Source of the DNA: Armatimonadota bacterium
Lineage (GTDB): Bacteria > Armatimonadota > UBA5829 > DTLH01
Direction of reading: 5' to 3'
NCBI GenBank assembly: GCA_039680575.1
Contig: JBDKSP010000071.1
Location: 1-64,000, forward strand
Length of the DNA: 64,000 nucleotides
Made by a program: the position numbers and the translations under genes. Each line of letters opens with the position of its first letter. Position 1 is the stretch's first letter. Positions 215-41,663 of the stretch are shown one piece after another. The notes beneath the pieces were generated by a model that saw nothing but the letters and a program-made list of their open reading frames with translations, did no database searches and was not told the DNA's origin.

Positions 215-289
215 TGGAGCCCACGATGGGATTCGGACCCATGACCTCCTCTTTACCAAAGAGGTGCGCTACCCCTGCGCCACGTGGGC
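215..289 (-). tRNA. tRNA-Thr(GGT)
   Basis: Cloverleaf GCCCACG...CGTGGGC-T-CCA; anticodon arm CCTCT-TTGGTAA-AGAGG. The T-loop reads TCCGAAT. Confidence 0.95.
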
Positions 290-377
290 GTACTTCCGTG
301 CGGCCTGAAAATCATGCCAGACACACACTGGCTCCCGGGTCCGATCAAAAAAGGAGCCGGAAGCCACAACAAAAACC

Positions 378-406
378 ATTATATCAGGATTACTCAGCCC
401 TTGCAA
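378..406 (-). promoter_or_regulatory. sigma70-type promoter for tRNA-Thr(GGT)-tuf
   Basis: TTGCAA-17 nt-TATAAT on the minus strand. Confidence 0.7.
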
Positions 407-448
407 GTGAGCTTGGCAGATCCTTTTTTGGATCAAAATAAAAGGAGT

Positions 449-533
449 TGGTGGTGGGAGTAGGTTTCGAACCTACGTAGGCTTCGCCGGCAGATTTACA
501 GTCTGCTCCCTTTGACCACTCGGGCATCCCACC
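449..533 (-). tRNA. tRNA-Tyr(GTA)
   Basis: GGTGGGA...TCCCACC-A-CCA; anticodon arm GCAGA-CTGTAAA-TCTGC; long variable arm. Confidence 0.97.
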
Positions 534-539
534 ATATCA

Positions 540-598
540 GAGGCTAGTAGCTGGAGGCTGGAGGTTAGAATTTTCTGGCCTCCAACCCCTAACTTCCA
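540..598. repeat. Inverted degenerate heptamer repeat (GAGGCTG / CCTCCAA type) between tRNAs
   Basis: gaggctagtagctggaggctggaggttag ... cctccaacccctaacttcc. Confidence 0.5.
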
Positions 599-603
599 CA
601 TCC

Positions 604-679
604 TGGAGCCGACGATGGGACTCGAACCCGCAACCTGAGGTTTACAAAACCCCTGCTCTGCCAATTGAGCTACGTCGGC
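604..679 (-). tRNA. tRNA-Thr(TGT)
   Basis: GCCGACG...CGTCGGC-T-CCA; anticodon loop TTTGTAA; T-arm GGTTCGAGTCC. Confidence 0.97.
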
Positions 680-30260: not shown

Positions 30261-31598
30261 ATGAAGACACTCAAAGATGTTATGAGCGCCGATGTGGTAT
30301 GGATCAGTCCGGCGCAACAAGTCAAATCCGCGATATTCCTGCTCAAGGGACATGGGATAGATGCCCTTCCGGTCGTCTACGCCCACGACTCCGTCGTCGG
30401 AATGCTCTATTGTTCTTCTCTCATAGGTCAGAACCAGGATTCGTCCGTTATGGACGTTATGGATAAGAACTACACCGCCGTCCCGTCGGATACACCGGTC
30501 TACCAGGCCGCCGAAATGATGAAAGTCGGCGGAAACAGCCATCTTCTCGTCGTCGATGCCGGAAAGCTCATCGGCATTGTCTCCCGAAGCGACATCGTAG
30601 CGGAACTCGGTAAGTCCTACGATACCTTGACGAAGCTGCCATGGCAGGACGCGTTCAGAGAATGGGGTATAAGCGCTCTCGACCACGGGTTCGAGATTTC
30701 CGTCATCCTCATCGATCTCGATTCGTTCGGCAAATTCAACAAAAGGTATGGGCATGTGATAGGTGATAATGTGCTGAAGTCCGTGGCTGAGATTTTATCG
30801 TCATCCGCCGATCCGGAGAAGGACTTTCTATGCCGGTATGCAGGCGATGAGTTCGCAATTGCCAGCTATCGGAAGTCAAATGAGGCGACGGAGTTCGGCA
30901 GACAGTTGATGGAAAAGATCTCCAGGATTGAGATCCCCGGCCTGTCCGAAAAAATCAGCGCGACATTCGGTATGGCCGGAGGCCGGAGGTCTGGCGGACG
31001 TGAACAGGTCCACTCTGCTGCAATGCTGGATGATCTTATCACCAATGCGAGCTTGAATTGTACCGCATCGAAGCCTGTAAAAGCAGAAGAACCGGCAAAA
31101 CCGACCCCGACCGAGATACAACAGGTCCAACCTGCAGCTCCGCCGGTAGAGACACCCATCCAAGCTGTGACACCTCGCGCGCAGCAGACAAGGCTGAAGA
31201 TTCAGACCATCCGGCTCTCTACAAGCCCGGCTGAGACTACGGTCCAAGTCGTGCTCTCACTCGGAGATACGGAGTTCTCTCATTCCGTGACCGGTTACTC
31301 TACCGGAGGGAGAAGTCTCCTGAGGCTGGTTGCTGAAGCAACTGCTTCGGCGGCGTCCAAGTCGCTCCCGGCAGATCACGGCATTATGATCGACGATGTG
31401 ATTACATTCAAAGCAGGGGATGACAGAGAGGTAGTATCGGTCATTGCGACTCTGATTACAACGAGAAACAGCAATACATGCGCCGGGAGCGCGGTTGTAA
31501 AACACGCTGACCCCTACCGCGCCGCTGCCGCCGCACTGCTTTCCGCGACGAACCGCCAGTTATCGCTGATACCGAAAGAGGGAGCAGGTAAAATGTAG
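30261..31598 (+). CDS. CBS-pair + GGDEF (AGDEF variant) + C-terminal domain of unknown function
   Basis: Two CBS domains; DLDSFGKFNKRYGHVIGD...RYAGDEF; PAE-rich linker. Confidence 0.88.
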   Translation: MKTLKDVMSADVVWISPAQQVKSAIFLLKGHGIDALPVVYAHDSVVGMLYCSSLIGQNQDSSVMDVMDKNYTAVPSDTPVYQAAEMMKVGGNSHLLVVDAGKLIGIVSRSDIVAELGKSYDTLTKLPWQDAFREWGISALDHGFEISVILIDLDSFGKFNKRYGHVIGDNVLKSVAEILSSSADPEKDFLCRYAGDEFAIASYRKSNEATEFGRQLMEKISRIEIPGLSEKISATFGMAGGRRSGGREQVHSAAMLDDLITNASLNCTASKPVKAEEPAKPTPTEIQQVQPAAPPVETPIQAVTPRAQQTRLKIQTIRLSTSPAETTVQVVLSLGDTEFSHSVTGYSTGGRSLLRLVAEATASAASKSLPADHGIMIDDVITFKAGDDREVVSVIATLITTRNSNTCAGSAVVKHADPYRAAAAALLSATNRQLSLIPKEGAGKM

Positions 31599-31623
31599 TG
31601 GCCGGTCTCCGTGCCGGCCTTAT

Positions 31624-31830
31624 TTTTGAAACGCGAATTACACGGATTTAACGGATTTCGCAGATGGTAGAGACTCGAAGCATCTACCCATATGCTTCTG
31701 TGCTTCGGGACCGCAGTTCGTCCCGAAGCACAAATCTCCACTAATTCGATAAGTATTCCTGCAATCACTTTCCGCGTCTTTCGTGCTGCTTCGCGTTCTT
31801 CGCGATTCAAAACCTGACTGCTGACAGCTA
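31624..31830. repeat. Composite intergenic palindromic element, copy B (inverted relative to copy C)
   Basis: TTTGAAACGCGAA...TTCGCGATTCAAA outer IR; inner GTGCTTCGGGAC..GTCCCGAAGCAC; heptamer tail. Confidence 0.8.
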
Positions 31831-32799
31831 TAAAAGCATCTCCACGAAGCTTTCAATCCTCACGCGCGTACGGGCATCTATCGGACCGGGGGACTCCCCT
31901 TCGAGCGTCAGAATCGGGATATCGATGTTATTCCGCACGATCAGGTCCTGAATCTGCCTGAAGCAGAAGCTCTGAGTGTAGTGGATCAGCCCGTCAATCT
32001 CTCTCCGCTCGATCTCGCGCTTGATGTCCTCGAGACGCCCGAAAATATCGTAGGGATAAGTATATCTCGCATACTGCTCGACGATGTCATCCGTCTCGAA
32101 CGGCATGGAAAACTGCCGCTGGACCTCGTTGAAGACTACTGACGTTCCGCGTTCCTCCAAAAGCTGGTATAGGTCGTTAAAAATCGAAGGAATACCCGCA
32201 TAACCGAGCCTTATCTGCGACTTTTTCGGCTCGCGGGACTTCGTTTCTGCTATAAAACTATCTATTTCTCGCTCGAACTTGTCCGGGTCGCCCCAGAAGT
32301 CGCTCGCGCTCACCTGCCAGAGGTGGTTTTCGAGCCCTGAGACCTTACCGTCTTTCCAGGTCAGCTCATCGACCTGCCAGACTTTCCTGCGGATGCCGTC
32401 CAGCTGCGCTTTCCAGTCATAGACATCCGACCAGTCCGCATCGAGGCGGTCTGCCAGCTTGCGGAGCTGCATCGCGAGTATATCCCGGTCACGACCGTAT
32501 GGAAACGCGAACGGGATGATCTCAACACCCATCATTTCGAGCGTTTCCATCATCGCCTGCGTCTGGCTGCAGTCGCCTTCCACAGCAGCGATAACGGTTT
32601 TGATCCCCTTCGCAAGCGCGGTGCCGTAGATCCCCTTTATCCACCCGCAGACGTTTCTGGGGTAACCGTCATGCTCCGCGCGAATGACCATCTCCTGCGG
32701 ATCATCCGAAGCTATGAAGATGTTGTTCAGGTCTACCGGCACATGTCCGGCTGCGTAGACTACCTCTATTGGGACTGTTGTTGTAATTCCGATTTCCAT
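31828..32799 (-). CDS. 2-hydroxyacyl-CoA dehydratase subunit D-like Fe-S protein
   Basis: PIEVVYAAG, GYPRNVCGWIK, EGDCS, QSFCFR, PILTLEG, TRVRIESFVEML. Confidence 0.85.
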   Translation of the reverse strand: MEIGITTTVPIEVVYAAGHVPVDLNNIFIASDDPQEMVIRAEHDGYPRNVCGWIKGIYGTALAKGIKTVIAAVEGDCSQTQAMMETLEMMGVEIIPFAFPYGRDRDILAMQLRKLADRLDADWSDVYDWKAQLDGIRRKVWQVDELTWKDGKVSGLENHLWQVSASDFWGDPDKFEREIDSFIAETKSREPKKSQIRLGYAGIPSIFNDLYQLLEERGTSVVFNEVQRQFSMPFETDDIVEQYARYTYPYDIFGRLEDIKREIERREIDGLIHYTQSFCFRQIQDLIVRNNIDIPILTLEGESPGPIDARTRVRIESFVEMLL

Positions 32800-32805
32800 T
32801 TTTAT

Positions 32806-33080
32806 TAGCTATCAGTTATCAGCTTTCAGCCGTCAGGCTTTGAATCGCGAATTGCGCGAAGCAGCACGGAAAACGCGAAAAAGGATTGGTGGAGATTTAT
32901 GCTTCGGCCATTTGAGATCCTTCGCCTACGGCTCAATAGGATGACATATCAATCAAGCACAACGTCATGCTGAACTTGATTCAGCATCCAGGAATACTTA
33001 TCGAATTAGTGGAAAATCGTGCTTCTCCCCGTGGCCCAATAGGTCCACGGGGTAGGATGAACCGCGGTCCCGAAGCATAG
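32806..33080. repeat. Composite intergenic palindromic element, copy C, with two internal insertions
   Basis: Colinear with the reverse complement of copy B except for inserts at ~32889-32987 and ~33025-33053. Confidence 0.8.
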
Positions 33081-33125
33081 TGCTGCTTCCGCAATCCAAA
33101 TTTTTGTTCCCTGTTCCCTAAAATC

Positions 33126-33875
33126 CTACCTTATCCCCAGCGCCTTGTGCAACTGAGGGAGGATGCGGACATCGTCGAGTTCTTCGGAGGCTATCGCATG
33201 CATCCTCAGAAGCTGGGGGAGCGCCGGCGGCTTAGTCCCTTCATCCGAGAACGGAGTGACCGGCTGCAAAATCAGCGGAACAGGCTTCGCTCCGGCTATT
33301 GTCTCTGCACACCGGCGGATTTCGGCATCCGTAGTCTCCGATGTCACTACAGCCTTTACGAAGACCTTCGCGCGTTTCGCAGCCTTCAAAAATCTTGCAT
33401 GCAGCTCGAACAGGTCTCCGACACTCGATGCGGACTGGAGCTTGAAGTCCATCGCTATCACATCCACCTGCCCGGCAAGCCGCGCGACTTCATCCGGCTT
33501 CGTCCCGTTCGTCTCAAGGTGGACACGGTAGCCCTTGCTCCTGAGCGAAGGCAAAAGTTTGACCAGAAAATCACTTTGCAAGAGCGGCTCGCCGCCGGTC
33601 AGTGAAACGTCTCCGTAAACTGCGAGTGACTCGATAGCTTCGACTACGTCATCCACCACGAGAGGGTTCTGCATATACGCGAAATCGCCTCTGCCCGGAG
33701 TCTTTTCGACCGAACAGAACGGTTTTTGCCTGTCCCTGGACGTCGGTGTGTCGCAGTAGTCGCAGTTCAGATTGCAACCACAGAAACGGACGAACACCTG
33801 TGGACGCCCCGTATAAATTCCCTCGCCCTGTATCGAGGTGAATATCTCTGATATAAACGCTGTCGGTGAAGACAT
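33126..33875 (-). CDS. queE: 7-carboxy-7-deazaguanine synthase (radical SAM)
   Basis: EIFTSIQGEG, FVRFCGCNLNCDYCDT, TGGEP, ETNG, PQLHK. Confidence 0.92.
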   Translation of the reverse strand: MSSPTAFISEIFTSIQGEGIYTGRPQVFVRFCGCNLNCDYCDTPTSRDRQKPFCSVEKTPGRGDFAYMQNPLVVDDVVEAIESLAVYGDVSLTGGEPLLQSDFLVKLLPSLRSKGYRVHLETNGTKPDEVARLAGQVDVIAMDFKLQSASSVGDLFELHARFLKAAKRAKVFVKAVVTSETTDAEIRRCAETIAGAKPVPLILQPVTPFSDEGTKPPALPQLLRMHAIASEELDDVRILPQLHKALGIR

Positions 33876-33897
33876 AGTGTAATTCCTTAATTAAATA

Positions 33898-34767
33898 TTA
33901 TAAAGCTTCTGCCGCGATCTGCGCAGCCATCTCATAATCCCCAAAAGGAGGCATAAAGTATGCACCTGCAGCCAAATCCTTTGCCTGCCGCAGAAACTCC
34001 ACAGCAATATCGATGCCTGTCGCCCGCGCGTGTTCCTCGTCGGCATTTCTTATACGCATTCTGATATGCTCCGGGACGTCAATTCCCGGCACTTCGTTAT
34101 GCAAATATTCGGCATGTTTCGAGCTTTTTAACGGGAGCACGCCGACAAGTACGGGTATTTTACTACCTTCGACCAACTTTGCAAACTTTTCAAGGACTGC
34201 CAGATCGTACACCGGCTGCGTGAGGGCGAAATGAGCTCCGGCCTCCATTTTCTTCTCCAGCCTGCCGATCTCCTTTGGAAGATCGCTCGAAGCCGGATTG
34301 ACCGCCACTCCAATGCAGAACTTCGGCGGCTCGGAGAGCGAATTACCCGCGAGGTCCGTCCCGCTGTTCAACCGGCTGATTACCCGCACCAGTCCTTCGC
34401 TAGTTACATCGAAAACACCTGTTGCCTGCGGATAATCCCCGATGCTGACCGGGTCGCCGGTCAGCGCAAGCACGTTGTGAACCCCAAGCGCATAAGCGCC
34501 GAGGAGGTCCGACTGCAGGCTGAGCAGGTTTCGGTCCCGGCAGGTCATATGCAGGATCGTATCTACACCCATGCACTCGCGCAAGAGGTGGGCAAGCGCA
34601 ACCGGACTCATCCTGACCCTTGCCATAGGGCTGTCAGCGATGTTTATAGCATCGAACCCGCGCAGGACGGATGCTTTTCCGATTGTTTTCTCGATGGCGA
34701 CACCGCGCGGCGGGTCGATCTCCACTGTAGTTACGAATTTTTTTCCGAGTTTGTCTCTAAGCGCCAT
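33898..34767 (-). CDS. Methylenetetrahydrofolate reductase (YitJ C-terminal-type)
   Basis: VEIDPPRG, NIADSPMARVRMS, HMTCRDRN, LTGDP, TQPVYD. Confidence 0.9.
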   Translation of the reverse strand: MALRDKLGKKFVTTVEIDPPRGVAIEKTIGKASVLRGFDAINIADSPMARVRMSPVALAHLLRECMGVDTILHMTCRDRNLLSLQSDLLGAYALGVHNVLALTGDPVSIGDYPQATGVFDVTSEGLVRVISRLNSGTDLAGNSLSEPPKFCIGVAVNPASSDLPKEIGRLEKKMEAGAHFALTQPVYDLAVLEKFAKLVEGSKIPVLVGVLPLKSSKHAEYLHNEVPGIDVPEHIRMRIRNADEEHARATGIDIAVEFLRQAKDLAAGAYFMPPFGDYEMAAQIAAEAL

Positions 34768-34771
34768 TGAG

Positions 34772-35635
34772 TTACCTCCCCAGCGCCTTAGCGATTGCGC
34801 GGATGTGCTCTGGAGTAGTCCCGCAGCATCCGCCGATTATCGCCACGCCCAAATCAGCAAACTGGCGGGCATAATCGGCCATGTACGCCGGTCCGCTGAC
34901 ATATACCAGTCGCCCGTCCACGAACTGAGGAAATCCTGCGTTCGGCTGGGCTATGACCGGTTTTGTGGCGACGGCAACCATTTCGCGCACTACGTTCAAC
35001 ATATCATGAAACCCTGTGCCGCAGTTAGCGCCGACGACATCCGCACCGAGCTCCTCGAATGTCTTGACAGCGGTCGCAGGGTCGACTCCCATCATAGTCC
35101 GGCCTTCCTGCGAAAACGACATCTGCGCGACTACCGGAATCCCAGTCGCCTTTGCGGCACTCACGGCGGCGGTGGCCTCGTTCAGATCGGCCATCGTCTC
35201 TACGAAGATGACATCCACTCCGCCTTCTTTCAGCGCTTCGGCCTGCTCATCGAAGACTTCGCGGGCTTCATCGACCGAAAGCGCGCCGTAAGGTTCCAGA
35301 ATCTTCCCTGTCGAACCCATAGAGCCTGCCACAACGATACCGCCTTTTGCTTCTTCTCTTGCTATCCGCGCGCCTGCCAGGTTGATCTCCCTTACGGAAC
35401 CGGCAAGTCCATGAGCTGCAAGCCTGATGCGGTTGGCTCCGAATGTGTTCGTTTCGAGGATTTGCGCTCCAGAATTAGCATAATCGTGGTGGATTTGGCG
35501 GATAAGGTCTACATTGGTCAAATTGATACTGTCGAGGCACTGGTCCATCCTGCCGCTTCGGCGGTGGATCTCCGTGCCCACAGCACCGTCGCAGATGACC
35601 GGCTTATGCTCGATCAGGTCGAGAAATTTGCTCAT
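34772..35635 (-). CDS. Homocysteine S-methyltransferase family protein (YitJ N-terminal-type)
   Basis: DGAVGTE, ETNTFGAN, GANC, PNAG.P, IGGCCGTTPEHI. Confidence 0.92.
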   Translation of the reverse strand: MSKFLDLIEHKPVICDGAVGTEIHRRSGRMDQCLDSINLTNVDLIRQIHHDYANSGAQILETNTFGANRIRLAAHGLAGSVREINLAGARIAREEAKGGIVVAGSMGSTGKILEPYGALSVDEAREVFDEQAEALKEGGVDVIFVETMADLNEATAAVSAAKATGIPVVAQMSFSQEGRTMMGVDPATAVKTFEELGADVVGANCGTGFHDMLNVVREMVAVATKPVIAQPNAGFPQFVDGRLVYVSGPAYMADYARQFADLGVAIIGGCCGTTPEHIRAIAKALGR

Positions 35636-35997
35636 TATTCCTCCCAATAGCTGGCAGCGGCTGAATCAGTCTCCCAGACAGTAACTTTCTTTACCTGGCT
35701 GGCGAACTTTTTGCTCATTTTTCCGTATATGTAGCAGGCAAGGTTCTCGGCTGTTGGGTTGGTCTCAGTGAAATCCGGCAATTCGTTCAGGTACGTATGG
35801 TCGAGCGATTTCATTATATCTCTTAAGGCCGACCGGACAGACCTAAAATCGGCAGCCATCCCGATCTTGTCGAGGTTCGGCGTGCGAAGGAGGACCTGCA
35901 CCTTGTAGGTGTGCCCATGCAGGCGTTCACAGTCTCCCGGATAGCCGCGAAGACAGTGTGCGGCATCGAATTTCTCTTCAACAAGTATATCGAACAT
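35635..35997 (-). CDS. queD: 6-carboxy-5,6,7,8-tetrahydropterin synthase
   Basis: FDAAHCL..YPGDCERLHGHTY, LDH.YLN, NPTAENLA, VWET. Confidence 0.93.
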   Translation of the reverse strand: MFDILVEEKFDAAHCLRGYPGDCERLHGHTYKVQVLLRTPNLDKIGMAADFRSVRSALRDIMKSLDHTYLNELPDFTETNPTAENLACYIYGKMSKKFASQVKKVTVWETDSAAASYWEE

Positions 35998-36063
35998 GGG
36001 AAATACCGCCTTCCTTGACGGAATTGCGAAATGTCCGCGGTTTGCTGCTCCGCGAACTGTGAT

Positions 36064-36092
36064 ATTATACCTATGGTAGAGGTACGCGTCAA
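36064..36092 (-). promoter_or_regulatory. sigma70 promoter of the queD operon
   Basis: TTGACG-17-TATAAT. Confidence 0.75.
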
Positions 36093-36101
36093 GAATCGAC
36101 C

Positions 36102-36177
36102 GTAAGAGTTCACTCTTAATGAGAGATTGTACATCAATCTGAATAACCCGCACGTCATCATGGAAGGACGTCACCCT
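36102..36177 (+). repeat. 76-bp dispersed repeat (second copy at 42432-42507)
   Basis: 68/76 identical by manual alignment. Confidence 0.85.
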
Positions 36178-36190
36178 TAACAACCAGCAC

Positions 36191-36326
36191 GTCACCCTGA
36201 ACTAAGGAGTTTCAGGTATTACCTGAAACTCTCCCCGGAAGATTTTCGGCTATAGCCGAAAATCCATAGATTCAGGGTCCATTCTTTTCCTGGATGCTGA
36301 GTCAAGCTCAGCAGCATGACGTTGTG
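36191..36326. repeat. REP-like doublet GTCACCCTGAAC..GATTCAGGGTC / GGATGCTGA..TCAGCATGAC, interrupted by a MITE
   Basis: The second half is an inverted near-copy of 32958-32993. Confidence 0.7.
36205..36266. mobile_element. Twin-hairpin MITE-like element with apparent TA target duplication
   Basis: TA|AGGAGTTTCAGG..CCTGAAACTC-TCCCCGGAA-GATTTTCGGC..GCCGAAAATCCA|TA; removing it restores the palindrome GTCACCCTGAACTAGATTCAGGGTC. Confidence 0.7.
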
Positions 36327-37125: not shown

Positions 37126-37256
37126 ATCATACCATTTGTCATCTTATACCTTGACAATGAGTCAAAAAAGGAACAATCTGGAACGCAGGCAAGTCTTTGT
37201 AAGTAATTTAGCAGCCTGGCAGGGTCAGATTGTGCCATCCACAAGGGAGACGACAA

Positions 37257-39413
37257 ATGCGTATCGTAATGCTTTTCTGCTTATCTGTTTTATCACTTGC
37301 TTCATCCATACCGGCAAGCGCCGAACCGCTCAAAAGTAACAGCATCAGCATCACGGATCTTCTTAAAATAGCCAGAACTGCTTCCAAAACCGAGCTTTGG
37401 GCCAGTGATTCGGTAGCTGAAGACAAACTTTCGGTGTATGTAGACCCATCATCCGTGGATAAGGTAGAGCAGGGGCTCGACCTCTTGCCGGGATACCAGT
37501 GGATAAGCATCAAACCGGCAGATGGAACCATATATAAGGTGCTTGGGCCGGACTATATCGAAAGAAGCAAGTGGCGCAGCCTCGCTGACGCCGCAGATGA
37601 GGAAGAAAGAAGAAAAGTCAGGGAATTTGTGGAAAAACGCCTCTCCGAATATAGAGCTGCGATGGCTCTTACCAACGATGAACTCCAAGCACTTGCCGAG
37701 ACAGACCCGCGACTTGTGTATGATCTTACCACCCCTTCCTTTCGTGTGGAAATAGAATTGCTTACCAGCTTCAACAATGAGCAGTTGAACCAGGTCTTAA
37801 GCCCGCAGGGTCTGAAAGTAAACGTCCGTGATTTGCCTGCAGACATGCAGGAAAGGTTTCTCGACAGTAAGGTTCGAGGAATGGTGGATGAGCCAGCTAA
37901 AAGATTGGCAAAAAAATACGGTGCTAATGCCCCAAGCGCAAAAGAGTTGCTGAAAGTGTTTGTTAACACCGGAACTCTACAATTCTCCGGTTATGGTTCG
38001 GGCGGGTTTACTGTGGACATCAGATCGGATGTTCCCTTGTTTGGAGGGTATCAATCATCTATTATAGGCCCCACATATACAGATAATTATTGGATTTATG
38101 TATTGAATCTAAGAGAAAAGACCATGTCCCGGGAAGATGCCTGGGATTTATGGAAAGCAGAAGAAGATCATTTCGACAAATTACGAACTGATGCTATGGC
38201 AAAGGAAAAAGAGACCCGTTTTGCAGAAGCCCCTCCCAGATTCGGCTCGAGGAATGCCCCTGATTTTAAGATAGACAGACAGCTTCTTGATAAACCTGTA
38301 GTGGAAGGATATCCCTATTATCGAGGCGTGGAATTCGTCCAAAGCGTCTGCAGCCAGAAAGGCTGTTCACTCTTTGCCCTTGAACCTTATCGGAACCGTG
38401 GATTAAAGGCAACCGATGATATGCAGTTCCGTTATGCTCTGGACCTGGCGATGGATAGTCTGGGTATTCTTAAGGACTATCTGGGTGATTATGTCTGGGC
38501 TTACCAGGATGATCAGCTAATCCTCGCTCCCAGGCATTTTGAAGATAGACTCGCTGCAGGTATACCGCTGTCTACTATAAATAAACTCCGAGCCATTGCA
38601 GCGAAAACCAACGGCACATTCGATCTTGACGGCCTGGCGGAGGCGGTTCCACTACTTAATCAGAGACAGATCGATGCTTTACCGGAGAATGCACCGGATG
38701 ACCTAAGAGCTACAGGTATAGACTATGTTAAGGAACCCGCCGTAAGGTTATATGCTTCCCTCAGTCCACGCCGGCGTGTAAAAGCATGTAATGGAGGTGT
38801 CTCATACACAGTATTGGAAAATAAACAGAGAGCCCTGTTCTATGAGGCGTTAGGAAGAGTTGTAAATGCAGTGGATTTGCTTCCTGAACCGTCTTATTTC
38901 AGTGTCGATGATCGTGATTCCCAAAATGGCAGGTATCACCTCATAACATTTACATTCGGCTTTGCCGATGAGACAGCCTTGCCGTTTGATCTTAGATTGC
39001 CAGCACGCAAAGATAATAGTAAAACCGCTCAATCTGCTTCCAAGGCTGATGCTAAGGCAGAACCGACACAGCCGCAGGTGCTTACGGTGATGAAATCCCT
39101 TGCAGAATGGAACTATATCGGCAGGAGAGAGCATGATGATGATAATGAGCTTAAGGCAATCATGTATTCTCAAATAGGAGAGAGGCCGGTAAAACGAATA
39201 TTAAAGGTGGGAGAAACCCTGGAAGGCGCGAAACTGGTTGAGATCGGAGCAAAATTCGTTACATTCTCGCTTGACGGCGCACAAATCACTTTCCCAATAA
39301 CACAGGCAACTGCACTTGCACCATTCGATCCGAAAGTTCCATCAATCTATACATCCTGGATAGGTATAGATGAGACTTGGACGGGTATTCTGAAGAAAGA
39401 GAAGGGTGAGTGA
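37257..39413 (+). CDS. Secreted hypothetical protein, tandem paralog 1
   Basis: Signal peptide; long ORF with GGGAG RBS; paralog at 39468. Confidence 0.85.
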   Translation: MRIVMLFCLSVLSLASSIPASAEPLKSNSISITDLLKIARTASKTELWASDSVAEDKLSVYVDPSSVDKVEQGLDLLPGYQWISIKPADGTIYKVLGPDYIERSKWRSLADAADEEERRKVREFVEKRLSEYRAAMALTNDELQALAETDPRLVYDLTTPSFRVEIELLTSFNNEQLNQVLSPQGLKVNVRDLPADMQERFLDSKVRGMVDEPAKRLAKKYGANAPSAKELLKVFVNTGTLQFSGYGSGGFTVDIRSDVPLFGGYQSSIIGPTYTDNYWIYVLNLREKTMSREDAWDLWKAEEDHFDKLRTDAMAKEKETRFAEAPPRFGSRNAPDFKIDRQLLDKPVVEGYPYYRGVEFVQSVCSQKGCSLFALEPYRNRGLKATDDMQFRYALDLAMDSLGILKDYLGDYVWAYQDDQLILAPRHFEDRLAAGIPLSTINKLRAIAAKTNGTFDLDGLAEAVPLLNQRQIDALPENAPDDLRATGIDYVKEPAVRLYASLSPRRRVKACNGGVSYTVLENKQRALFYEALGRVVNAVDLLPEPSYFSVDDRDSQNGRYHLITFTFGFADETALPFDLRLPARKDNSKTAQSASKADAKAEPTQPQVLTVMKSLAEWNYIGRREHDDDNELKAIMYSQIGERPVKRILKVGETLEGAKLVEIGAKFVTFSLDGAQITFPITQATALAPFDPKVPSIYTSWIGIDETWTGILKKEKGE

Positions 39414-39467: not shown

Positions 39468-41663
39468 ATGCGCATCGTAATGCTTTTCTGCTTATCTGTT
39501 TTATCGCTTGCTTCATCCATACCGGCAAGCGCCGAACCGCTCAAAAGTAACAGCATCAGCATCACCAATCTTCTTGAAAAAGCCAGGACTGCTTCCAAAG
39601 CCGAATATTGGCCAAGTGATTCTGTAGCCGAAGACAAACTTTCGGTGTATGTAGACCCATCATCCACAGATAAGGTAGAGCAAGGGCTCGACCTCTTGCC
39701 GGGATACCAGTGGATAAGCATCAAACTGACGGATGGGACTGTATATAAGGTACTCGGACCGGATTACATAGAAAGAAGCAAGTGGCGCACACTTGCTAAT
39801 ACTGCGGATGAGGAAGAAGGAAAGAAATTCAGGCAGTATTCCGAGAAACGGCTTGCCGAATACAAAGCTGCGCTAAATTTTTCCGATGAAGAGTTGCAAT
39901 CACTTGAGTATGAAGACCCCAGCCTTTTACATGATCTTACCACCCCGTCCTCTCGTGTAAAAATAGAGCTGCTTGCCGGCCTCAACGATGAACAGACTAA
40001 CTATGCCCTAAGTCCACAAGGCTTGACGGTGAATGTTCGTGACCTGCCTGCCTCAACACAGAAAAAGCTCTTTGACAGCTTTCGAAAAAGCATGATAGAA
40101 GAATCGGCTTATAAATATACACAACTGGGTTACAATCCACCAAGCGCGACAGAATTGGAGGAGGACTTTTTTAATAACGGAGCTTTGTATTTCTCTGGTG
40201 ACTATGGGAACGTTTGTCTGCGGATAAAATCGAATATTCCGATGCTTTCAGGATGCCAAAGCTGTGTTCTATCAAGCAAGGGTATTTCTTATTCCTGGGC
40301 TCGTTTAGCGTTATTAGTCGCAAAAGGCATGTCGTGGGAAGATGCCCATACTTTCTTGGAGGCAGAGTTAAAGTATTTCTCCAAATTACGGCTTGACGTC
40401 CAGAAAAAAGTAAGGGAAAACTATTCTGCAAAAAACCCTCCCAGGTTCGGTTCGAAGAATGCTCCTGAAGGCAAATTCGATAAAGAATTTCGTGCCAGTT
40501 GTCCGGAAATCATACAACGCATCTGCAAACAGAAAGAATATTCGTTCTTTGCTTTTAAACCTCGTATGACAGGGGGAAGGCTGATTAAAGATAATACGCC
40601 ACTTGGATATGCGCTCGACCAGGCAGCAGACAGCTTGGAAGATTATGTTTGGGCTTATCAAGATGGGCAGCTAATCTTCGCTCCCAGGCATTTTGTGGAT
40701 AGACTTGCTGAGAATATACCGCCGTCCACTATAGCGAAACTTCGGAAAATCGCTCTCCAGACTAACAGCATATTTGACTTTGAAGGTCTGGTAAAGGTAA
40801 TTTCATTGCTGAATCAGAAACAGCTTGAAGCCTTGCCGGAAAATGTACCGTATGACTTGATGCAGGCACGTATATACTATGCTAATGAACCGGTTATTAA
40901 ATTTTACGCTTCCCTTAACCCATCTCAACGGAAACAGGCATGTAATGGAGGTATCTCCTGCACAGCGCTGGGAGACCTGCAGAAGGATCTATTCTACAAG
41001 GCAGTAGAAGGTATTTTAACTGCTCCAACTCCATGCTCTGAACCTGCAGAGTTTAGTATTATTGACCGTGGTTCATTCCTCACTGAAGACCCGGAAGGCG
41101 GTGAGTCCTATTTCTGTGATGAGCTGTCCGATGATACCGAAAATAGTGAAGATTACCAAGGTTTTCCAACAAACACCCCTGACCAGCATCATTTTTTATT
41201 TAGGCTCAGCCTTGCTGATGGAACAACGCAGTCAATCGATCTTCGGTTCCCCGTTCCCGGAGATAAATGCAAAATAACACAAAATGCTTCCAAATCCGAA
41301 GATAAACCAGCGCCTACACAGCCGCAGGTGCTTGCGGTAATGAAATCTCTTTCGGAATGGAACTATATTGGCCGGAGAACGCATGATGATGACAATGAAC
41401 CTAAAGCAGTCATGTCGTCGCAAAAAGGAGACAGGTCAGTAAAACGAGCGCTAAAAACAGGCGATACTCTGGAAGGCGCAAGGTTGGTTGATTTTGGAGT
41501 AACATCTGCTACATTTTCGCTCGATGGAGCGCAGATCACCTTTCCTCTAGCACAGACTACTGCGCTCGCACCATTCGATCCGAAAACGCCGACAGAGGAA
41601 ACATTGTGGATAGATATAGATGCTGCCTGGGCAGAAGCTATAAAGAAAGAGATAAGCGAGTGA
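39468..41663 (+). CDS. Secreted hypothetical protein, tandem paralog 2
   Basis: N- and C-terminal regions highly similar to the 37257 protein. Confidence 0.85.
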   Translation: MRIVMLFCLSVLSLASSIPASAEPLKSNSISITNLLEKARTASKAEYWPSDSVAEDKLSVYVDPSSTDKVEQGLDLLPGYQWISIKLTDGTVYKVLGPDYIERSKWRTLANTADEEEGKKFRQYSEKRLAEYKAALNFSDEELQSLEYEDPSLLHDLTTPSSRVKIELLAGLNDEQTNYALSPQGLTVNVRDLPASTQKKLFDSFRKSMIEESAYKYTQLGYNPPSATELEEDFFNNGALYFSGDYGNVCLRIKSNIPMLSGCQSCVLSSKGISYSWARLALLVAKGMSWEDAHTFLEAELKYFSKLRLDVQKKVRENYSAKNPPRFGSKNAPEGKFDKEFRASCPEIIQRICKQKEYSFFAFKPRMTGGRLIKDNTPLGYALDQAADSLEDYVWAYQDGQLIFAPRHFVDRLAENIPPSTIAKLRKIALQTNSIFDFEGLVKVISLLNQKQLEALPENVPYDLMQARIYYANEPVIKFYASLNPSQRKQACNGGISCTALGDLQKDLFYKAVEGILTAPTPCSEPAEFSIIDRGSFLTEDPEGGESYFCDELSDDTENSEDYQGFPTNTPDQHHFLFRLSLADGTTQSIDLRFPVPGDKCKITQNASKSEDKPAPTQPQVLAVMKSLSEWNYIGRRTHDDDNEPKAVMSSQKGDRSVKRALKTGDTLEGARLVDFGVTSATFSLDGAQITFPLAQTTALAPFDPKTPTEETLWIDIDAAWAEAIKKEISE

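Follow-up and report, generated by a model that had tools for sequence, protein, structure and literature searches.

Within a 64,000-nucleotide (nt) stretch of contig JBDKSP010000071.1 from an Armatimonadota bacterium (assembly GCA_039680575.1; hereafter the window), a lone gene of the HGD-D family, here called X, follows the queuosine biosynthesis genes queD and queE. X probably encodes an ATP-activated [4Fe-4S] reductase that would take the place of QueF, reducing the nitrile of 7-cyano-7-deazaguanine (preQ0) to the amine of 7-aminomethyl-7-deazaguanine (preQ1). This assignment rests on a fold model, the cysteine pattern of the protein, its position in que operons, the mutual exclusion of X and QueF and the retention of TGT and QueA together with either QueG or QueH. 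With somewhat less assurance, we also favor a broader picture, in which X defines a broadly distributed nitrile reductase family that is driven by ATP and works with a single [4Fe-4S] cubane, giving biology a second, QueF-unrelated way of converting a nitrile into a primary amine. This family would be the source of preQ1 in about one-fifth to one-third of the sampled Bacillota and Desulfobacterota-type genomes and, in the Armatimonadota, would have shed its own activase and use a borrowed one.

X and QueF hardly ever share a genome. Both were counted in three phylum samples, each including the X-bearing genome at its center, with cut-offs of E 1e-40 or 1e-60 for the X profile and E 1e-8 for PF14489 (QueF); for the Bacillota and Desulfobacterota-type samples, a minimum completeness of 92% was requested. 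Among all 533 genomes, 116 carried X, 212 carried QueF and 2 carried both, compared with an overlap of about 47 expected if the two genes were independent. The phylum of the Bacillota record (201 genomes) contained 42 genomes with X, 48 with QueF and none with both; queC, detected at E 1e-35 in 55 of the 201, occurred together with X in 33, with QueF in 22 and with neither in none. Similarly, the phylum of the deltaproteobacterial record (Desulfobacterota-type, 151 genomes) contained 46 genomes with X and 75 with QueF, including both overlaps, and in each of these the QueF-like protein lacks the catalytic cysteine present in six control QueFs. The two cysteine-less genes (L151:2361-2816 and L152:2437-2871) lie behind a helix-turn-helix/cyclase-like gene and a small gene, not behind que genes, in one case with thyX in between. 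In the Armatimonadota (181 genomes), X was found in 28 genomes from eight families and QueF in 89 genomes from 14 other families, without overlap. None of 50 X genomes (50 of 79 distinct ones) had QueF above the cut-off, with three weak matches below it. Free co-occurrence with QueF, which a preliminary description of this locus had named as evidence against its proposal of a 7-deazaguanine pathway enzyme, was thus not seen. Overall, where queC, tgt and queA occur without QueF, X takes the vacant place, with exceptions in family f3.

The genome of the window fits this pattern. Its bin (2.97 Mb, 96.8% complete) holds folE2 and queC together on contig C107, tgt on C121 and queG on C42; a search of the genome yielded neither QueF (PF14489) nor QueH. 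Complementarily, we surveyed QueA, QueG and QueH in 80 chosen X genomes (42 Bacillota, 17 Armatimonadota and 21 others). QueA was present in 75 of the 80, and QueH in 41 and QueG in 34, with no genome holding both and five holding neither. The retention of QueA and of QueG or QueH points to ordinary queuosine as the product of these pathways.

Gene neighborhoods tie X to the same pathway. Across the best 80 of 81 confirmed X homologue loci in GTDB genomes, queE lies directly upstream of X in 45, a link far beyond chance, so that the enrichment near que genes anticipated for a pathway enzyme was indeed observed. The 45 loci are Armatimonadota by title or, for the untitled ones placed on the tree, by tree position; no Armatimonadota title occurs among the other 35. 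An activase gene is present in 21 of these other loci, and none of the 80 has both queE and an activase. The queE-X gap measures at most 40 nt in 26 of the 45. Upstream of queE stands either queD (23 loci, L037-L071, Armatimonadia-type) or DUF366 (21 loci; L010-L033, L072, L078, L086 and L089), never both. A lead from this pattern is that DUF366 might replace or aid one of the early steps toward preQ0; a literature search for it returned unrelated DUF3669 papers, and DUF366 was not mentioned in the literature searched. Among the best 80 of 569 metagenome X loci, many of them short, queE lies near X in 28 and a dedicated activase in 24, and one contig shows the order queC-queE-DUF366-X.

Outside the Armatimonadota, Ilyobacter polytropus and the Bacillota genome G155 carry X-activase-queD-queE-folE-queC, and G166 carries X-activase-queC-queD-queE; G155 and G166 are the two Bacillota with X in que operons. 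These cases show the link to queCDE and folE in low-GC anaerobes that the preliminary description had suggested. In G080, which has no queC, the order is yhhQ-X-activase, with yhhQ being the gene for a preQ0/preQ1 transporter. On a 62-row tree of X, que-linked proteins fall into four groups; the que-linked label needs five changes, and well-supported branches force at least two. Together, neighborhood and QueF exclusion strongly support a role for X in the 7-deazaguanine pathway.

The remaining surroundings are diverse. Most Bacillota X loci sit at murI-rph-rdgB, some others beside rtcA or ksgA-tsaD, and many adjoin glutamate-fermentation or housekeeping genes. Non-que neighbors are often RNA-processing genes (rph, rtcA, ksgA-tsaD; L032, L035, L039, L058, L153, L165, L166 and numerous Bacillota loci), which hints weakly that X could act on a tRNA-bound substrate. 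Searches for a preQ1 riboswitch gave none in the window, in 10 X loci by gathering score or in 4 loci by E-value, a neutral result. A link to phages or DNA modification was rejected, as viral contigs gave 66 pattern matches with none confirmed and 50,697 phage records were without X; plasmid occurrence is limited to one record.

The protein itself matches PF06050 over residues 7-322 with 132.7 bits (cut-off 28.4). Its structure model (predicted local distance difference test (pLDDT) score, 93.6) has a predicted two-domain alpha/beta fold like that of DCCP, HadBC and BzdNO and matches DCCP, HadBC and BzdNO/MbdON best, with template modeling (TM) scores of 0.72-0.82 at 13-20% identity; an ESM Atlas search returned HGD-D clusters only. 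C51, C77 and C279, the three cysteines already singled out in the preliminary description, are the only invariant cysteine columns in 43 of 43 homologues. They align with the third, fourth and seventh cysteines of the DCCP motif, and the positions of the fifth and sixth are occupied by invariant ExQRQF and YTYPY stretches instead. X belongs to the BCR/HAD/DCCP superfamily but lacks the defining features of DCCP, of the heterodimeric CoA enzymes and of the QueF family. It has three invariant cysteines compared with the six or seven of DCCP, and reaches 53.5 of 350 bits with NF040772. It is not one of the paired alpha and beta subunits of the 2-hydroxyacyl-CoA dehydratases and class I benzoyl-CoA reductases: loci in which a further HGD-D gene is the direct neighbor of X or of its activase are few (L058, L014, L169 and L219), and no recurring CoA-transferase was found among the annotated neighbor clusters. 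Nor does it belong to the QueF family, defined by T-fold, QueF motif and catalytic Cys-Asp, as X has no PF14489 match.

The three invariant cysteines likely bind one [4Fe-4S] cluster. In BzdO, three cysteines hold an aqua-[4Fe-4S] cluster at which the substrate is reduced, and the substrate fills the space of a lost sub-cluster (described in PMC11971306). By analogy, we infer a similar layout for X, with an open Fe site, the substrate in the space of the lost sub-cluster and a polar pocket suiting a guanine-like ring. Reduction of a triple bond is plausible in this fold because DCCP together with its ATPase reduces acetylene in an ATP-dependent, cyanide-inhibited reaction (reported in PMC7317905, which describes the natural substrate of DCCP as not yet known).

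Several observations weigh against a preQ0 reductase. In the Armatimonadota sample, 64 of the 181 genomes carry neither X nor QueF; queC status is known for the Bacillota sample and for five of these 64, one of which was positive. G416 (family f3, same class, 99% complete) possesses queC, queD, queE and queA with neither X nor QueF, and its queD-HMT-MTHFR-queE operon, with the same gene order as in the window, ends without X following queE. G498, from the same family, has queD, queE and queA and again neither gene (que loci, G416:C8 (L275) and G498:C131 (L276)). Even at E 0.001, no X was found in these two genomes, bar one weak partial HGD-D match. Pathway genes can hence persist without X or QueF, which reflects either a loss in progress or a third solution for reducing preQ0. 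Nine of the 42 Bacillota X genomes lack queC; these fit salvage, since 26 of the 48 QueF genomes lack it as well (for yhhQ and salvage patterns, see PMC5372724). Most X loci outside the Armatimonadota have no que neighbor (0 of 35 with queE), and genomes without a dedicated activase number 17 of 17 in the Armatimonadota, 2 of 42 in the Bacillota and 12 of 21 elsewhere. Furthermore, the genomes are kin and not independent, so p-values overstate the exclusion, and the literature searched offers no direct precedent for transferring four electrons at one cubane by way of an imine intermediate that can be hydrolysed. Finally, queA was not found in the bin of this genome. The bin lacks the entire 6.4-kb block in which the nearest relative carries queA, but this block is found on a single 9.6-kb contig of run X1, a run that holds 97% of the window's words, at a depth of 33.6 (28.5 for a binned neighbor). 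A real loss of queA was rejected on these grounds and a binning gap is likely; with the unbinned queA included in the inventory, the conversion of preQ0 to preQ1 is likely the sole step without a gene.

Neighborhood and QueF exclusion do no more than locate X within this stretch of the pathway, and X might act on a 7-deazaguanine by another route or to another product, for example bringing 7-amido- or 7-carboxy-7-deazaguanine (amide or acid) directly to the aminomethyl level or forming a different base from preQ0. The constant neighbor in the Armatimonadota is queE, not queC, and DUF366 precedes queE in 21 of the 45 loci. We nevertheless consider this unlikely: queC is present in 33 of the 42 Bacillota X genomes and shares the operon in three cases, the retained QueA and QueG or QueH point to the ordinary product, X stands behind a preQ0/preQ1 transporter gene in the queC-less G080, and the phage collections searched, in which other deazaguanines abound, yielded no X. 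Less probable still is an accessory function, in which X would relay low-potential electrons, handle Fe-S clusters or remove by-products on behalf of QueE or of a different step, with a third protein performing the reduction. Such a reducer may exist in family f3, where the pathway is kept without X or QueF, and the short queE-X gaps (26 of 45 loci) would suit a QueE partner. A QueE helper is, however, not expected to exclude QueF as X does in the 533 genomes; X persists in salvage settings without queE and queC, such as yhhQ-X-activase; and the activase is the sole gene family that recurs beside X across phyla.

The Pfam and database names, which say dehydratase, would cast X as one of the usual 2-hydroxyacyl-CoA dehydratases or CoA-ester reductases found in anaerobes, whose que link and QueF exclusion would stem from ancestry and niche. 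Many loci lie by glutamate-fermentation or housekeeping genes, and entire families show one state, X or QueF. This is very unlikely given that most loci have no adjoining second subunit, X is about 60-110 residues shorter than and 13-20% identical to its solved relatives, all 55 queC-bearing Bacillota carry exactly one of X and QueF, and que-linked operons arise in four groups of the tree. The exclusion also holds inside the Desulfobacterota-type phylum, which is largely anaerobic. Of the two reductive steps suggested in the preliminary description, preQ0 nitrile reduction is strongly supported by neighborhood and by the exclusion of QueF; epoxyqueuosine reduction, for which Fe-S reductive chemistry would suit and five X genomes without QueG and QueH might speak, is extremely improbable and was rejected, because QueG or QueH is present in the other 75 and QueG in this genome.

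As a preQ0 reductase, X would operate on preQ0 made by FolE2, QueD, QueE and QueC, either as the free base or already inserted in tRNA. The substrate would occupy the room freed by the loss of the second cubane, among the invariant polar and aromatic residues D23, N25, N26, E225, R228, Q229, Y243, T247, Y248 and Y250, with its nitrile at the open Fe site. An activase dimer would dock at the PRNxC loop and at the helix of the C-terminus, giving four electrons singly, with protons or hydrogen atoms coming from Fe-bound water by analogy to BzdO and DCCP. TGT, QueA and QueG would then complete queuosine. In most phyla the activase would be encoded by the dedicated gene beside X; the Armatimonadota likely use another one.

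Activases adjacent to X belong to PF01869 and form one clade (100/100; the tree has no row for L187, where the locus stretch ends before its activase). Such a dedicated activase occurs in 40 of 42 Bacillota, 9 of 21 other genomes and none of the 17 Armatimonadota. The cognate activase envisaged in the preliminary description was therefore found neither in this genome nor in the 16 other Armatimonadota. The activases of this genome are a gene on contig C20 and a fused protein on C51. The C20 locus (G000:C20:44905-50089) comprises three HGD-D genes (418, 321 and 455 amino acids) and the activase, with 83-94% identity in the nearest relative. Four of the 17 Armatimonadota have no activase match at E 1e-55. 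One orthologous activase common to the phylum was rejected, and no common activase identified, because the best activases fall into at least three separate clades.

The docking surface of X is nonetheless preserved. R110 of DCCP contacts the ATPase (shown in PMC9351452), and its equivalent in X, R48, is present in at least 90% of rows; the docking residues P295, R310, R314 and F318 of the C-terminal helix are kept in 18 of 18 Armatimonadota rows. The absence of a dedicated activase combined with kept docking residues makes a borrowed activase likely. In L058 and L169 (Thermodesulfobacteriota-type), X lies directly behind a non-dedicated activase. A model of X with a dimer of the C20 activase scored 0.68 compared with 0.04 for the best control, with contact via the C-terminal helix, a contact agreement of at least 72% between runs and a partner pLDDT of at least 82; for reference, 116 of 157 solved pairs attain the score mark, as do 2 of 215 mismatched ones. 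As the DCCP:DCCP-R complex has been solved (7yzm), this score expresses likeness, not binding. X of the Armatimonadota thus likely runs on a borrowed activase, with the modeled C20 protein as the candidate here.

At the locus itself, the five genes are real, confirming the earlier observation (Table 1), and the promoter reported in front of queD is present as a consensus match.

Table 1. Features of the que-X locus in the window
Feature	Position	Strand	Evidence and remarks
Sigma70-like promoter upstream of queD	36064..36092	-	TTGACG-17-TATAAT; 11/12 consensus; consensus match only
queD, 6-carboxytetrahydropterin synthase, 120 amino acids	35635..35997	-	PF01242 E 3e-40; TIGR03367 above cut-off
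Homocysteine S-methyltransferase domain (HMT)	34772..35635	-	PF02574, NF006396; start overlaps queD stop
MTHFR domain	33898..34767	-	PF02219, NF006396
queE, radical SAM 7-carboxy-7-deazaguanine synthase, 249 amino acids	33126..33875	-	PF04055
queE-X gap, 326 nt, packed with short genome-wide repeats	32800..33125	.	
X, HGD-D gene, 323 amino acids	31828..32799	-	PF06050 E 3e-38
Repeat-packed gap 3' of X	31599..31827	.	Two-way hairpin 31600-31619 common with convergent CBS-GGDEF gene

The top NCBIfam matches of the queE product are four QueE models, all below cut-off. X is the only HGD-D gene on its contig and lies on the strand of the que genes, as first described; the three others of the genome are together on C20. 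The records of its closest homologues bear Armatimonadota titles. The genes queD, HMT, MTHFR and queE lie close together and have ribosome-binding sites. At the start of X, a Shine-Dalgarno sequence is not evident, and no terminator-like site was found in the 326-nt gap in front of it; the repeat-filled gap and the missing Shine-Dalgarno qualify a co-transcription of X with queE. Repeats of this gap have 152 blastn matches in the genome and those of the gap behind X have 90; the gap between queD and the PP2C gene (35998-36315) also holds the repeat family, with 206 matches. A mobile cassette bounded by inverted repeats around X was rejected, because the arms match 90-152 places genome-wide and X is under purifying selection: the gene is intact, with a ratio of non-synonymous to synonymous substitution rates (dN/dS) of 0.066 against its 93%-identical closest relative (0.047 for queE).

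The HMT and MTHFR genes are the N- and C-terminal halves of a split PRK08645-type protein. They are passengers outside the conserved module and were rejected as pathway members: HMT lies near X in 6 of 80 loci, MTHFR in 5 and both in 5, and both are present in the X-less G416, where the HMT open reading frame (ORF) has 498 amino acids. Other MetH domains are encoded on contigs C41, C42 and C50.

The five-gene stretch is directly flanked by a CBS-GGDEF gene and a PP2C gene. The former (30261-31598), convergent with X, encodes a CBS-CBS-GGDEF protein in which the motif reads AGDEF and the C-terminal domain has no annotation. Beyond the latter lie tandem paralogous ORFs of 727 and 731 amino acids (37230-39413 and 39468-41663) with near-identical signal-like N-termini, the first without a Pfam match. 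Three tRNA genes are located on the minus strand at window positions 218-679.

In the literature searched, we found no link between the X family and queuosine, although a mention is possible in subscription journals, which mostly lay outside the search, or in supplements, which it did not cover. A published reconstruction rule counts QueF among the complete-pathway genes (table in PMC6593275), so X-bearing genomes would likely be miscalled for queuosine. If our assignment is correct, predictions of which anaerobes make queuosine would change, and cells would have a second, QueF-unrelated way to reduce a nitrile, an Fe-S chemistry that would be new and of interest for biocatalysis. Within the literature searched, X would also be the first activase-driven member of its fold with a natural organic substrate that is not a CoA compound.

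Among known systems, QueF (PF14489) resembles X in its reaction, as proposed for X, its pathway position and its kinds of neighbors (queCDE, folE and yhhQ), and both genes persist without queC in probable salvagers. QueF has an unrelated fold and works through a cysteine thioimidate and NADPH hydride without metal (as described in PMC13740343, which names it the only known nitrile-to-amine family), whereas the prediction for X is catalysis at a [4Fe-4S] cluster fed with single electrons in an ATP-driven manner. QueG and QueH provide a model for the X/QueF pattern, being unrelated enzymes for one step with zero overlap in 80 genomes; they act on epoxide reduction and are experimentally established, whereas the role of X is predicted. 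DCCP/DCCP-R (PDB 6eno, 7yyl and 7yzm; NF040772) shares with X the fold (TM 0.78) and the arrangement of a single catalytic gene plus activase, and X keeps its PRNxC loop and C-terminal docking helix; X differs in having three of the seven motif cysteines and about 100 fewer residues. HadBC/HgdAB and BzdNO/MbdON, in turn, share the PF06050 fold, the three-cysteine cluster with an open Fe site inferred for X and, in most phyla, a PF01869 activase. These enzymes are heterodimers acting on CoA esters, whereas X is a lone gene of 323 codons, 13-19% identical to them at the protein level, tied to que genes and accompanied by an activase clade of its own.

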